Assembly (NCBI GenBank): GCA_030605835.1
Contig: JAUWHO010000042.1
Location: 5,732-69,731, forward strand
DNA: 64,000 bases
Direction of reading: 5' to 3'
Source of the DNA: Candidatus Zixiibacteriota bacterium
GTDB lineage: Bacteria > Zixibacteria > MSB-5A5 > DG-27
Below, in pieces: positions 5,039 through 63,216 of this stretch. The notes under the pieces were generated by a model. The model did no database searches. It had not been told where the DNA came from and worked only from the letters and a program-made list of their open reading frames with translations. Positions within the stretch are counted from its first letter, which is position 1. The number at the start of each line of letters is the position of its first letter. Position numbers and translations under genes: made by a program.

Positions 5039-6424
5039 ATGAGGCTGACCACCAAATACATACTGACCGAACTGATCGGACCTTTCCTATTCGGGTTGGC
5101 AGTGATCACCTTTGTCCTGATCATGGACTTCATCCTGGATATTCTAAACTTGATCATATCAAAGGGGCTGGACTGGAAGACCATCCTGGAGGTCTTCGCC
5201 TTAAACCTGGCCTGGATGCTGGCGCTCTCGGTCCCGATGTCGGTTCTGGTGGCGGCCCTGATGGCTTTCGGTCGGATGTCCGCGGACAACGAAATCACGG
5301 CTTTGAACGCCTGTGGAGTTCCTCTCTATCGGATAGTTGCTCCGGCTTTGCTTGCCAGCGCCGTTTTGGCGTCAGGGCTGGTATGGTTCAACAACGAAAT
5401 CCTGCCGGAGGCAAATCACCAGGCGAGGCTCTTGATGACCGACATCACCCAGAAGAAGCCGGCCTGGAACTTGGAGCCTAACGTCTTCATCGACTATTTC
5501 GAGGGGTATCACCTCCTGGTCAAGAAGGTCGACCCCCGCACCTCCAGGCTGGAAGATGTAACTATCTACGATCACAGGGAGGGTGCCCTTCCCCGGACCA
5601 TCATCGCCAAACGGGGGCGAATGGAGTTCTCCGCAGACGGCAACAATCTGCACATCTTCCTGGAGGAGGGAGAGATTCACGAACCCGACGAGGAGGACCC
5701 CACCCATTATCGTCGTCTGACCTTCAGCAAACAGACTATAAACATAACCGATGTCGGGGGAGAGCTGGTCAGGTCCTATTCCGATTATCGTGGCGACCGG
5801 GAGAAATCGAGCTCCCAGATGTTGGAGGAGAATCGCCAGAAGAGAGGCGCCCTGAACAGGTCTCGGCGAAAGATTCAGGACTACGTCAGGACCGCGGCGG
5901 GCTCAGCGTTGGAGGGCGATATCGGCCGGACCGAATCCCTCCCCCGAGCTTTTGTGGTCAATCGCCGCCGCGCCGCCACCCTGGCGCTCAACGACAATCG
6001 CAACCTGCTCAGAAAAATAGAATACGAAGCCACTCAGATGAGAAATCTGAGTCGGCAAATAAATTCCCTGAATGTGGAGGTTCACAAGAAGTATTCGATT
6101 CCAGTCGCCTGTTTGGTCTTCGTCCTCATCGGCGCGCCTCTGGGAGTGATGGCACGTCGTGGCGGGATGAGCACCGGCCTGGGATTAAGTCTCCTTTTCT
6201 TCATCCTCTACTGGGCTTTCCTCATCGGCGGAGAGGAATTAGCCGACAGACAATTCCTGAGTGCCTTCTGGGCGATGTGGAGTGCGAATTTCCTCATCGG
6301 GGCGGTGGGCATAATCCTTCTGGTGAAGTCGGTGCGGGAAACCGTGTTCATATCCTGGGAGTGGTTAGACCGCCTCACATCCAAGTTCAGGAAATCGGCC
6401 TCAGAGGATAGGGGGAGGGCTTGA
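5039..6424 (+). CDS. LptF/LptG-family permease (YjgP/YjgQ) with a long periplasmic insertion
   Basis: ORF track 461 aa; N-terminus MRLTTKYILTELIGPFLFGLAVITFVLIMDF and C-terminal TM block typical of the LPS export permease family; about 100 aa longer than usual because of a charged insert. Confidence 0.7.
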   Translation: MRLTTKYILTELIGPFLFGLAVITFVLIMDFILDILNLIISKGLDWKTILEVFALNLAWMLALSVPMSVLVAALMAFGRMSADNEITALNACGVPLYRIVAPALLASAVLASGLVWFNNEILPEANHQARLLMTDITQKKPAWNLEPNVFIDYFEGYHLLVKKVDPRTSRLEDVTIYDHREGALPRTIIAKRGRMEFSADGNNLHIFLEEGEIHEPDEEDPTHYRRLTFSKQTINITDVGGELVRSYSDYRGDREKSSSQMLEENRQKRGALNRSRRKIQDYVRTAAGSALEGDIGRTESLPRAFVVNRRRAATLALNDNRNLLRKIEYEATQMRNLSRQINSLNVEVHKKYSIPVACLVFVLIGAPLGVMARRGGMSTGLGLSLLFFILYWAFLIGGEELADRQFLSAFWAMWSANFLIGAVGIILLVKSVRETVFISWEWLDRLTSKFRKSASEDRGRA

Positions 6425-7515
6425 TGTCGCTAATAGACCGTTACCTCGCCAGGACATTTCTTTACACTCTCGGATTTGCGCTACTTGCCTTTGTCTTAGT
6501 GTTTGTGATTGTTGACCTCATCGAAAACCTGGACAAATACATCGACCATGACGCCTCCCTCAGAGATGTCTTCTATTATTACGTTTGCTTCACCCCTTTC
6601 ATCGTGGTCTTGACTCTCCCGGTGGCGATGTTGCTTTCGACCCTCTTTTCCCTCGGCACCCTGTCGAAATACAACGAGCTAACCGCCATCAAAGCCAACG
6701 GGGTTTCGCTCTATCGGATTCTCTTGCCGATCTTCGGGATTGCCTTTCTGGTGAGTCTTCTAGTGCTCTTCAGCGCCGAATATCTCATCCCCCAGGCCAA
6801 CGCCGAGAAAAGCCGAATAAAAAGCTTCAACATCGAAAAGAAACCGAGGGCGAAAGAGATCATCAGGAGCAACCTGTTCTTCGAGGGGCGGGATCACTTC
6901 TTTTATTACTTCAAGAAATATAACAGTGAGACCCAGACTGCGGAGAGGGTGGTGGTGCAGAAGATCACGGAGGGGCGTATCACAGAATCGATTGAGGCCG
7001 AAAAGATGGTGTGGACAGCCCGGGGTTGGAAGTTCGAGAAAGCCAAACGACGCCTCTTTACAGATTCACTTGGGGAGGAATCCACAGAAAGGTACGAAGA
7101 GCACGAAACCCTTCTCTACCCGGTCCTGAAGGAGACCCCGGAGGAGTTCGCCAAGAAGCAGAAAAAGCCGGACGAGATGGGCTTTTTCGACTTGCGGAGA
7201 TTCATCAAAATCAAAGAGAGTCTGGGGGAGAATACCGCCAAAGAGCTGGTGGAACTCTATCTGAAAATCACCTTCCCCTTCGTCAATTTGATCGTGGTTT
7301 TTCTGGGAGCTCCGATTGCCGCTGCTCCTCGCCGGGGGGGATTCATGCTCGGATTTGCGATTTCGCTGATTATCAGCTTCGTATATTTCGCATTGATCCG
7401 GGCGGGGCAATCGCTGGGGCAAAACCAGAAGCTGCCACCCCTCCTGGCGGCGAGTTTCGCCAACATCGTCTTCGGACTTATCGGTCTGGTGCTTCTAATC
7501 AAAGCAAAGAAATAA
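6421..7515 (+). CDS. LptF/LptG-family permease (YjgP/YjgQ)
   Basis: ORF track 364 aa; MMSLIDRYLARTFLYTLGFALLAFVLVFVIVDLIENLDKY; 4-bp overlap with upstream paralog suggests an operon. Confidence 0.7.
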   Translation: MMSLIDRYLARTFLYTLGFALLAFVLVFVIVDLIENLDKYIDHDASLRDVFYYYVCFTPFIVVLTLPVAMLLSTLFSLGTLSKYNELTAIKANGVSLYRILLPIFGIAFLVSLLVLFSAEYLIPQANAEKSRIKSFNIEKKPRAKEIIRSNLFFEGRDHFFYYFKKYNSETQTAERVVVQKITEGRITESIEAEKMVWTARGWKFEKAKRRLFTDSLGEESTERYEEHETLLYPVLKETPEEFAKKQKKPDEMGFFDLRRFIKIKESLGENTAKELVELYLKITFPFVNLIVVFLGAPIAAAPRRGGFMLGFAISLIISFVYFALIRAGQSLGQNQKLPPLLAASFANIVFGLIGLVLLIKAKK

Positions 7516-7517
7516 TA

Positions 7518-7592
7518 TAGGAAACAGGGGACCGGAGACAGGGAACAGGAAACAGGGGGCCTCAGTGAACCGTGAACTGTCAACTGTGAACT
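7518..7592. repeat. Purine-rich 7-nt repeat tract (AGGAAAC / AGACAGG / GTGAACY units on + strand)
   Basis: Begins about 3 nt after the lptG-like stop (7513-7515): aggaaacaggggaccggagacagggaacaggaaacaggg...gtgaaccgtgaactgtcaactgtgaac. Confidence 0.8.
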
Positions 7593-7880
7593 AACCGGGG
7601 TAGCCTCCTGGCCTCGGCCAGGGGGATTATTTTGAACCCGTAGAGCGGTGAATTTATCACCGCCATTTCTATGAGCCGTGACCCCCTACCCCTGGGTAGC
7701 CCAGTGGCCTCTGCCACTGGGTCGCTTGCATCAACTTGGGTGTGATGAATTCTCCGACCCCTACGGATTATCTTTCAAGGGAATCGGAAATCGCATATAG
7801 GAATCAGTGAACGCAGCATTCATTTACAATCCATGACGGTCGGTCTAACGGGTAACCGCAGAGGTTATCCTCCAGAGACA

Positions 7881-7910
7881 AAGAAAGGGCAGGGGTGTTT
7901 CCCCTGCCCT
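7881..7910 (-). terminator. Intrinsic terminator-like hairpin (distal, third copy)
   Basis: gggcaggggtgtttcccctgccc preceded on + strand by aagaaa (UUUCUU on minus-strand RNA); weakest of three copies. Confidence 0.35.
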
Positions 7911-8017
7911 TTCGATCACAAGTAAGCTGGGAGCTATCTTTATTGTTCCGTCAGGACCGAAGCGTAGCGTGTCCTGACGGTTAGTCCGAGGCGTAACCAC
8001 AGAGGTCATCCCTGGAT

Positions 8018-8049
8018 ATAAAAAAGGCAGGGGTGGTATCCCCTGCCCT
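8018..8049 (-). terminator. Intrinsic terminator (second copy)
   Basis: aaaaaaggcaggggtggtatcccctgcc on + strand = GC stem followed by UUUUUU on the minus-strand RNA. Confidence 0.5.
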
Positions 8050-8224
8050 TTCGGTCACGAATAAGTTGAGTGTTATCTCTTGTCCATGGGAACGTATTCG
8101 GCCTCCAGTGGTCCGACGTAAACTGCCCGAGGTCTGAAGATACGGTTTACTGTTCCGTCAGGACCGAAGCGTAGCGTGTCCTGACGGTTAGTCCGAGGCG
8201 TAACCACAGAGGTCATCCCTGGAT

Positions 8225-8256
8225 ATAAAAAAGGCAGGGGTGGTTTCCCCTGCCCT
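8225..8256 (-). terminator. Intrinsic terminator of citrate synthase gene (proximal copy)
   Basis: About 25 nt past the gltA stop: aaaaaaggcaggggtggtttcccctgcc on + strand, i.e. 8-bp GC stem plus U6 on the minus-strand transcript. Confidence 0.6.
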
Positions 8257-8279
8257 TTCGGTCATGTATTAGCCGAGTG

Positions 8280-9494
8280 TTATCTCTTGTCAATGGGGAC
8301 GTAGTCGGCCTCCAGTGGTCCGACGTAAACTGCCCGAGGTCTGAAGATACGGTTCTGGGGGAGATACTCAAGGACTCGAGCCACCCATCCAGCCACCCTG
8401 CTGACCGCAAAGATGGGGGTGAACATGGGAACATCGATCCCGAGAGCATAGTAGATGGTGCCGGAGTAGAAGTCGACGTTCGGGAAGATGCCCTTCTCTC
8501 CGTAAGCCTTGATGACCTCTTTCTCGATGGTGTTGGCGATCTTGTAGAGATGCCCCACGCCCTTCTTCTCGGTGATCTCCTGGGCATACTCTCCCAGTAC
8601 TTTGGCTCTGGGATCGTAAGCTTTATAAACCCGGTGCCCGAAGCCCATGAGCTTTTTCTTCTTGGCGATGGAATCCTTAACGAACTCCACTGCACCGGCT
8701 TCGTCCTTTATCGACAGAACGTCAGCCAGGGCGCGCTCGTTGGCACCACCGTGAAGCGGTCCCTTCAGGGAGGCGATTCCGGCGGTGATGGAACTGTACA
8801 GATCGCTCAGGGTGGAAGCCACCACCATGCAAGTGAAGGTGGAATTGTTCATCCCGTGGTCGGCGTGAAGGATTAAAGAAACGTCCATCACCTTTTCGAG
8901 GGTCTCGTCCGGCTTCTCCCCGGTCATCATGTAAAGGAAATTGGCGGTATGATTCAAGGAGGAGTCTGGATCCACAGGCTCTTTGCCCCCGCGTATGCGA
9001 GCCCAGGCCCCGGCGATGGTGGCCATCTGCGCCGTCAACTTCTCGCCCATTTTGTAGCTGGCCTTGATTCCCTCGGAGATCTGATCCGGCTCTCCGGAGA
9101 ACATCTTCTTTACGGTCGGCTCTGCCTCCTCATCGCAGGCTCCCAGGGCCGAGACCCCCACCTCCAGGGCACCCATGGGATGGGAATCCTTGGGCAGAAG
9201 TTTTAAAGCATCGATGACCGCCCGGGGTATGTTCCGATAGGAAACCAGCCGGGAACAGAATTCATCCAACTCCTTCTTGGTAGGGAGCTTCCCGTAGATC
9301 AACAGATAGGCAGTCTCCTCGAAGTTGGAGTGCTTGGCCAGATCGAAGATGTTATAACCCCGATAGACCAGCCAGCCCTTCTGGCCGTCCACATAACCGA
9401 TGGTGGACTCACAGGTTATGGCACCTTCCAGGCCCTTGTTGAGTTCGATGGTGACCGGCCACTCAACTTTGCCGGTGAATTTCGGTTGAGCCAT
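8280..9494 (-). CDS. gltA: Citrate synthase
   Basis: ORF track 404 aa; citrate synthase signatures LHADHG, MGFGHRVYKAYDPRA, FPNVDFYSG; full-length relative to the family. Confidence 0.9.
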   Translation of the reverse strand: MAQPKFTGKVEWPVTIELNKGLEGAITCESTIGYVDGQKGWLVYRGYNIFDLAKHSNFEETAYLLIYGKLPTKKELDEFCSRLVSYRNIPRAVIDALKLLPKDSHPMGALEVGVSALGACDEEAEPTVKKMFSGEPDQISEGIKASYKMGEKLTAQMATIAGAWARIRGGKEPVDPDSSLNHTANFLYMMTGEKPDETLEKVMDVSLILHADHGMNNSTFTCMVVASTLSDLYSSITAGIASLKGPLHGGANERALADVLSIKDEAGAVEFVKDSIAKKKKLMGFGHRVYKAYDPRAKVLGEYAQEITEKKGVGHLYKIANTIEKEVIKAYGEKGIFPNVDFYSGTIYYALGIDVPMFTPIFAVSRVAGWVARVLEYLPQNRIFRPRAVYVGPLEADYVPIDKR

Positions 9495-21210: not shown

Positions 21211-21300
21211 TCATTCACTATTGACCATTCACCATTCACTATTCACCATTCACCATTCACTATTAACTATTCACCATTCACCAATCCCTGTCACCTGTCT
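21211..21300. repeat. CATTCAC / TATTCAC 7-nt repeat tract (GTGAATG on minus strand)
   Basis: tcattcactattgaccattcaccattcactattcaccattcaccattcactattaactattcaccattcacc..., ending at the MacB-like stop codon (21301-21303). Confidence 0.85.
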
Positions 21301-25484: not shown

Positions 25485-26006
25485 CCTTTCCCGAAAGGGA
25501 TGCTTGAGGCTAAGCTAATCCTGTCAAAGATTACGATACCCAAAATATAACTCCTCAAACCGATTGACAAGTCAATTTGCTGAGGTGCTTGACGCTGCCT
25601 GCGAGAAACGGTCTGAGTAAAAGCCGCACCTTCACAGTCATCCAAAACGACAGCAGATGTCAAATGACCTTCTACCGTTCCGCCAGGACCGGAGTCCGCC
25701 GAAGGCGGACGTGTCCTGGCGGTCACTGTTCTCGGTCAGACCTACGGCTCCTGTGAGACATGCCATTACTTCGGTCCTGACCGGACCACAGAACTTGCAG
25801 CGGAAACCCTTAGGTTTCCACAAACCAACTGAACCGTAGAGCGGTGAATTTATCACCGCCAACCTCCGGGTCGGTCGCCGCAGGCAATCCGCCTCTGGCG
25901 TGATGAACTCCGACCGCTACAGATTATCCTTTGTCCGGTCAGATCCGCACGGAAAAGAAATGGGAAACAGGATCACCCCCAAAAGGCCACAAAGCTCCCG
26001 AAAATT

Positions 26007-54630: not shown

Positions 54631-54733
<103 letters not shown>

Positions 54734-54763
54734 CTTTCAACGGGAAGGAGGATTCACGACCCT

Positions 54764-62868: not shown

Positions 62869-62990
62869 GGGTGGGGGTTGAACCCCCACCCTCAGGCGGG
62901 CAGAAGATATCCGCCCTGGCGGAGGCCAGGGAGCTACCCATGTGGATTTCGTTCCCAGCGGGGTAGCCCAGTGGCCTCTGCCACTGGGTA
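62869..62990. repeat. Cluster of GC-rich palindromic elements shared with other intergenic regions
   Basis: gggtgggggttgaacccccaccc (also at about 20926-20948) and gggtagcccagtggcctctgccactggg (also at about 7693-7722), copies identical over 26-30 bp. Confidence 0.8.
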
Positions 62991-63117: not shown

Positions 63118-63216
63118 GGTCACGGATGAGGGCATCCGTGACAAACAGGTTGACTCCGGAGTACGAACGCCCCGGCTATGCCTTCCTGTTCCCTGTTCCC
63201 TGTTTCCTGTCTCCTG
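63118..63216. repeat. Hairpin element (gtcacggatgagggcatccgtgac) followed by CCTGTTC-type 7-nt repeats
   Basis: Variant of the two-hairpin element plus ccttcctgttccctgttccctgtttcctgtctcctg. Confidence 0.75.

Follow-up and report, generated by a model that had tools for sequence, protein, structure and literature searches.

The citrate synthase gene gltA of a Candidatus Zixiibacteriota bacterium ends in a tandem repeat whose 207-nt unit holds the end of the gene, its predicted terminator and a second hairpin, H2. We found it in a stretch of 64,000 nucleotides of contig JAUWHO010000042.1, called the window below, where gltA and lptG are convergent. We read the repeat as a real, young, strain-specific tandem duplication of 207 bp, nested on an older duplication of ~140 bp, that probably arose through illegitimate joining together with allelic recombination and had a near-neutral effect. 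Our probability for this reading as a whole is roughly 65%. The duplication is an ordinary strain-specific event at an unstable spot, and no new kind of element.

The repeat unit and its three copies

Tandem Repeats Finder reported an array at the gltA end (7939-8354) with a period of 207, 2.0 copies, 95% matches, 0% indels and a score of 762. A repeat search of the window likewise returned two full copies, 95% identical, that abutted head to tail in exact register; they are called A (proximal to gltA) and B (distal) in Table 1. A weaker third set of matches to the full copies covered 7881-7939 (73-76% identity) and 7834-7870 (78%), and the corresponding old partial copy C ran on into ancestral downstream sequence. 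An earlier note on this DNA, made from the letters alone, had described two full tandem copies of an about 206-bp unit plus a partial third, lying at 7851-8348. The tandem arrangement and the copy count held; the unit measured 207 nt, the array extended over ~7834-8354, and the third copy proved to be much older than the other two and common to other strains.

Read on the gltA strand, the unit consisted of the last 70 nt of gltA with TAA, a 25-nt spacer, the terminator hairpin (GAAAGGGCAGGGG, a loop, CCCCTGCCTTT and then a T-run), a segment D, H2 and finally AACAGTAAA. Both full copies thus had the contents that the earlier note had assigned to them. The last 70 nt of the intact gene and its stop codon fell within copy A, and the piece of gltA displaced into copy B comprised 23 codons. 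This orphan tail could still be translated in frame, as previously noticed, and ended in ...VYVGPLEAEYVPMDKR before the stop, compared with ...VYVGPLEADYVPIDKR in the real GltA, the changes being conservative. The whole unit, the terminator hairpin, H2 and D had no further copy elsewhere in the 64-kb window, with 0 expected from shuffled sequences.

Two open reading frames (ORFs), of 47 aa (8073..8216, minus strand) and 54 aa (7845..8009, minus strand), began at an ATG in D; past H2 they continued into the orphan tail or into copy C. Both arise as by-products of the duplication and do not merit annotation as genes.

Table 1. Positions in the window of the repeat copies, predicted hairpins, allelic patches and neighbouring genes
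Feature	Position	Strand	Description
Copy A	8146..8352	minus	proximal; real gltA tail, 3' spacer, T_A, segment D, H2
Copy B	7939..8145	minus	distal, full length; orphaned gltA tail, T_B, D, H2
Orphaned gltA tail of copy B	8073-8145	minus	TAA at 8073-8075
Copy C	7834..7938	minus	old partial copy; relic of the last two codons, TAG-like stop, spacer, T_C, D2; 73-79% identity to A and B
A/B junction	8140..8152	minus	only novel joint; ...GGAACAGTAAA/CCGTATC... (slash marks the joint)
Variable patch in copy A	8245..8304	minus	codons D and I; 3' spacer GGCTAATACATG
Variable patch in copy B	8038..8097	minus	codons E and M; spacer AACTTATTCGTG; allele of L169 and L081
T_A	8229..8258	minus	predicted intrinsic gltA terminator; stem of 12 bp and loop of 6 nt before UUUUUUAUAU; -24.2 kcal/mol, z = -4.1
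T_B	8022..8051	minus	predicted duplicate terminator; tail UUUUUUAUAU; -22.4 kcal/mol, z = -4.0
T_C	7883..7913	minus	predicted terminator, older copy; stem of 13 bp, loop of 5 nt, U-run UUUGUCUCUG with an interruption; -30.3 kcal/mol
H2 in copy A	8155..8187	minus	perfect 10-bp hairpin, 13-nt loop, no U-run; CCGTCAGGAC-N13-GTCCTGACGG; -23 kcal/mol
H2 in copy B	7948..7980	minus	CCGTCAGGAC-N13-GTCCTGACGG
gltA	8280..9494	minus	citrate synthase, 404 aa, intact ORF; Pfam PF00285 Citrate_synt, E=5.9e-134
lptG	6421..7515	plus	convergent with gltA
lptF	5039..6424	plus	upstream of lptG
Terminator-like hairpins of lptG	7604-7625 and 7645-7663		beyond the lptG end

Copy number and alleles among related strains

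The comparison set consisted of 14 loci from the same species-level group with 89-97% nucleotide identity in gltA, drawn from metagenome contigs and from the GltA 90% protein cluster, and the junction and H2 were searched for in 171 fetched loci in all. Among the GTDB species representatives the best matches were metagenome-assembled genomes of Zixibacteria with only 70-71% amino acid identity and unrelated downstream DNA. Copy B was absent from all 14 related loci, and the 21-mer across the A/B junction occurred in none of the 171. When the window was aligned to L164, L081 and L169, the last being the closest locus by nucleotide identity (97.2%), a clean 207-nt indel appeared. L164 had copy A, H2 and the old copy C followed by lptG, which is the window minus one unit, and L081 and L162/L163 had a single terminator and D before lptG. 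The comparison of copy number across strains that the earlier note had called for therefore showed variation, with a second full copy in the window only; up to now, no other locus shows the 207-nt duplication. Exact look-ups of GltA and of the 47-aa ORF, which spans the junction, gave no match, and a word-index protein search with this ORF gave no candidates, the tool being limited for so short a query. Since copy C was also present in L164, L082, L161 and L166, the older A/C duplication was widespread.

Seven of the 14 public gltA contigs (L163, L165, L167, L168, L169, L170 and L171) ended no more than 320 nt past the stop codon; in several cases the end fell within the terminator or H2. The gltA 3' region is a recurrent break point of short-read metagenome assemblies in this lineage.

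Copies A and B differed at ten unit positions (49, 55, 61, 79, 80, 83, 86, 88, 108 and 203). Nine of these lay within 60 nt around the stop codon, with identical runs of 48 and 94 nt in the unit, and such clustering had a simulated probability of ~0.0015. At all nine clustered sites both states were represented among genuine gltA ends from other strains. Over 120 nt, copy B differed from L169 at only 2 positions and also had the loop variant in common with it. Copy A had the same spacer as L170, and in the D and I codons it matched the L164 and L093 group. The nearest GltA proteins, P0125 (99.3%) and P0127 (99.0%), ended in the B-type ...AEYVPMDKR; they differed from the GltA of the window at three or four residues, two of which were the D/I residues. 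Thus, the conservative in-frame changes would be standing functional alleles and not decay of a pseudo-copy, and it is because both ends are alleles of functional gltA that the orphan tail still reads in frame. Their segregation in other strains also points to the involvement of recombination with another allele.

Judging from these matches, the native tail appears to be the distal copy B, and the proximal copy A appears to be a tail with an imported patch. Copy B matched the nearest relatives and copy A matched alleles of other lineages, which may reflect displacement of a native 3' end by a foreign one; the contigs compared may themselves be strain mosaics. At position 203, copy A had the consensus G and copy B a private A, which is as expected if copy A was imported. 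The earlier suggestion of a recent duplication or gene conversion was supported by the identical runs and by the clustered differences, and the changes themselves are better read as imported alleles than as drift.

The same differences could have been produced during assembly, if two co-occurring strains differing in the 60-nt patch had been laid in tandem or a single copy had been expanded. The inter-copy differences are exactly strain polymorphisms, two strains of the species can be found in one sample (L081 and L082 both came from Ga0209979), and the break point described above marks the spot as hard for assemblers; the restriction of copy B to one assembly and the empty look-ups of the junction-spanning ORF also fit an artefact. 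However, a de Bruijn-graph assembler would need reads with k-mers spanning GGAACAGTAAA/CCGTATC, where the flanks have only 2-5 nt in common. The sequence contained no Ns and had no contig-end signature, the copies were in exact register, and the longest identical run of 94 nt could be resolved by 150-nt reads. Moreover, the window had no other long-period near-identical tandem repeat. We consider an artefact unlikely.

Hairpins, junctions and the unstable spacer

The hairpin of T_A and T_B, GGCAGGGG-N6-CCCCTGCC, was located at 8233-8254 and 8026-8047 with the minus-strand continuation TTTTTTATAT. The terminator scanner flagged T_C only and missed the other two, in which extension of the stem consumes the U-run through A-U pairs, so these were folded directly. 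All three then had a stable GC-rich stem-loop and a U-rich tract after the stop. The three consecutive terminators that the earlier note had placed between gltA and lptG are predicted ones, with folding energies of -22 to -30 kcal/mol, z about -4 and an interrupted U-run in the third. H2 folded with -20 to -23 kcal/mol. In its 3' arm, native D sequence (CCGTCA...) recurred as the reverse complement, which suggests that H2 might have arisen by a fold-back template switch during the older duplication.

It is possible to see a selected function in this arrangement, where T_A, T_B, T_C and H2 would be stacked as an insulator between gltA and lptFG, or where the repeat would encode a small RNA or peptide. 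All three terminator hairpins were strong, their stem was invariant across strains in an RNAalifold analysis of 11 sequences, the older duplication of the module was kept in several strains, and the 47-aa ORF covers D, H2 and the orphan tail. Nevertheless, copy B was confined to one assembly, and strains with a single terminator exist (L081, L162, L093 and L171). The same RNAalifold analysis, which included segment D, recovered only the terminator stem, with 0 compensatory pairs and no covariation outside it, and the best match in an Rfam search over 7400-8500 (E up to 10) reached 21.1 bits, where the gathering score is 51. A known structured RNA was rejected on these two results. The start codon of the 47-aa ORF was ATA in copy C and had no spaced Shine-Dalgarno sequence, and H2 lacked a U-run. 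A selected function therefore appears quite improbable. Silent cassette switching of the GltA C-terminus was dismissed as well, because such a switch is implausible where a housekeeping enzyme would change by two conservative residues.

The A/B joint, spanned on the minus strand by GGAACAGTAAACCGTATCTTC, had a microhomology of 2-5 nt (CAG(T)AA versus CAGAA/CCGTATC in gltA). The older A/C joint in L164, L082, L161 and L166 read GGAACAGTAAAG/ATAGC, and L169 had a joint GGAACAGTAAAG/TGATAT. These three different junctions lay within 5 nt of one another, 5-10 nt 3' of H2. With regard to one homologous end and one illegitimate joint, the joint CAGTAAA/CCG stood against CAGAA/CCG in gltA, and the left crossover was not locatable. 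In L169 (1600-1669), A and H2 were joined straight to TGATAT-GGATTGT, a scar that resembled a deletion of copy C and a cargo island at a microhomology (TAA(A)G).

In the reading we prefer, the new joint would have formed by illegitimate recombination at the 2-5-nt microhomology immediately 3' of H2. Since the two copies carry different population alleles, DNA of a second allele probably took part in the event. In a one-step route, recombination with homology on the gltA side and an illegitimate joint on the opposite side would have installed a new tail and pushed the native tail, copy B, downstream; this route would account for the pattern at position 203. In a two-step route, slippage would have produced the duplication and a short conversion tract would have come later. 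Either way, GltA would remain intact with two conservative substitutions near its C-terminus (D/I in the window versus E/M in the B-type tail), and the locus would gain an orphan tail that is not translated and one additional predicted terminator. The effect was most likely near-neutral, giving redundant termination between convergent genes, and no change is implied for GltA function or for central metabolism.

Several points weigh against this reading. Copy B was seen in one assembly only, at the level of the contig and not of the reads. Metagenome contigs may be in-silico mosaics of co-occurring strains, in which case the allele mosaic among the loci may be partly artificial, and the same may hold even for which allele was assigned to which copy. 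The microhomology at the A/B joint is short, neutrality is an assumption, and the one-step and two-step routes predict identical sequence and are inseparable here.

Accessory and defence islands cluster at chromosomal hot spots between conserved core genes, and the gltA-lptG spacer, 764 nt long in the window, is such a hot spot for rearrangement and cargo islands. The flanks were constant, with the gltA terminator on one side and GGATTGT[AG]AATGAAT, with lptG beyond, on the other, and the cargo varied among strains. L082 and L166 had A, H2 and the terminator of C followed by an island with a secreted protein bearing a type IX secretion system tail, then GGATTGT[AG]AATGAAT and, where the contig continued, lptG. 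L161 had the same left part followed by a 294-aa protein, two small helix-turn-helix proteins and the motif, its contig stopping before lptG. In L093 (a protein of 936+ aa with a match to the defence candidate PD-Lambda-4_A, E=2e-20) and L171, the island came directly after a single terminator. In contrast to these loci, the window carried no cargo and had only duplicated modules.

The cargo 3' of the gltA terminator occupied 4405-6552 in L082, ~5413-7694 in L166 and ~1716-3283 in L161, and started from 850 in L093 and from ~5265 in L171. The right boundary was visible in the first three; the contigs of L093 and L171 stopped earlier. The islands of L082, L161 and L166 had in common a conserved right end of ~80 nt (...CACAGCAGATTAAACGG...TCTCATAA.TGATAT).

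This slot raises the question of site-specific recombination, in which H2 and a CAGTAAA site would be bound by a recombinase or transposase, or the gltA tails would be attachment-site duplications left by integrative elements with the gltA 3' end as their target. The clustering of three independent junctions within 5 nt beside a perfect hairpin is in line with it, as are the unrelated cargoes of L082/L166 and L161 in the same slot with their common right end, the cargo directly after the terminator in L093 and L171, and the defence-like nature of one cargo. On the other hand, nothing lay between the repeated copies, and no integrase or transposase was seen in the window neighbourhood or in the visible island parts. 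The repeats did not flank the cargo (T2 was on one side only), and the right-end motif of the islands was missing from the window. H2 was restricted to one locus, with 2 copies in the 64 kb, 5 occurrences among the 171 fetched loci, all at orthologous sites (L082, L161, L164, L166 and L169), and 0 in viral contigs. We regard site-specific recombination as highly improbable. Attachment-site duplication in particular was rejected because the copies abut, no integrase was seen, and the repeat of the island-bearing relatives is on one side only. A dispersed mobile repeat, such as a miniature inverted-repeat transposable element, a repetitive extragenic palindrome or an IS200/IS605-like end, was rejected because searches of the window, of the 171 loci and of viral contigs found the unit, H2, the terminator and D nowhere but at the gltA locus.

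One special form of the idea would make H2 with CAGTAAA(G) a dedicated recombination site at the gltA end, cut and joined repeatedly by a hairpin-recognising enzyme. If true, it would explain why orphan tails are nested, how the L169 scar formed and how unrelated islands with a common 80-nt end were exchanged, and it would represent a small integrase-less cassette-exchange system anchored on the terminator of a housekeeping gene. We place very little credence in it.

The locus as a whole contained lptF, lptG, an M23 peptidase gene and MoeA as neighbours of gltA, and the GltA of the window was 100% identical to a public protein, P0132, from an NCBI contig of 110 kb. Additional local duplications were found in L082 on the lptG side of the spacer. 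A hairpin CCGTAGAGCGGTGAATTTATCACCGC, terminator-like on the lptG strand and located in the window at 7636-7663 and at a second intergenic site (25830-25861), was tandemly duplicated with its flanks in L082 (6714-6747 and 6866-6899). A small dispersed element, GGGTAGCC with a 10-bp stem-loop, was present at 7595-7625, 7691-7721, 62917-62942 (-) and 62958-62983 (+), with compensatory changes distinguishing the stems of its copies. L081 and L164 lacked the 7691-7721 copy and L082 had it, indicating an insertion/deletion polymorphism.

Intergenic tandem arrays of heptamers were located at 2441-2534, 7519-7592, 21212-21283, 54639-54735 and 63185-63216, with the motifs GTTTCCT x13.6, AGGAAAC/GTGAACT, CATTCAC x10 and CTGTCTA x11. 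The array adjoining lptG differed in copy number in relatives (L081 3119-3159, L082 6943-6969). These arrays resembled direct repeats of heptamers reported from intergenic DNA of Beggiatoaceae (PMC4679880).

Relation to known rearrangements and significance

Palindromes are associated with rearrangement breakpoints. Tandem duplications mediated by microhomology or slipped strands are among the spontaneous rearrangements of bacteria (PMC3411829, PMC8639346). The gltA duplication was similar to them in being head-to-tail without a spacer, in having one novel joint at a very short microhomology with a breakpoint at the base of a perfect hairpin, and in being missing from close relatives. However, its copies were not identical, and the 60-nt patch of a second population allele would not be produced by plain slippage.

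A second likeness was to the displacement of C-terminal ends in rhs, contact-dependent inhibition and type VI secretion system (T6SS) genes; for the orphaned 3' regions that lie in strings at rhs and T6SS loci, an origin by homology-facilitated illegitimate recombination was proposed (PMC5361080). Here too, a conserved gene body would have received a new 3' end and the old one would have been shifted downstream. The copies formed a nested string with A as the newest and proximal member and C as the oldest and distal one, and one side of the event would be homologous and the other illegitimate. In contrast to the toxin loci, gltA encodes a housekeeping enzyme, the 23 displaced codons were nearly synonymous in function, the donor appeared to be a conspecific allele and not a divergent module, and there was no toxin/immunity cargo and no evident selective benefit.

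The array also looked like stacked Rho-independent terminators between convergent genes, with GC-rich stem-loops and U-tracts in series, the first of them 25 nt past the stop, and with an upstream A-tract that would give partial bidirectionality. Unlike in such arrangements, the stacking of these predicted terminators at gltA was a by-product of tail duplication and varied among strains.

The gltA end provides a worked example of an in-frame pseudo-tail with conservative changes that need not signal selection, since such changes can come, as they probably did here, from the import of standing alleles. Moreover, it suggests that the orphaning of 3' ends, known from toxin loci, can also affect a housekeeping gene next to an island hot spot, and do so silently.

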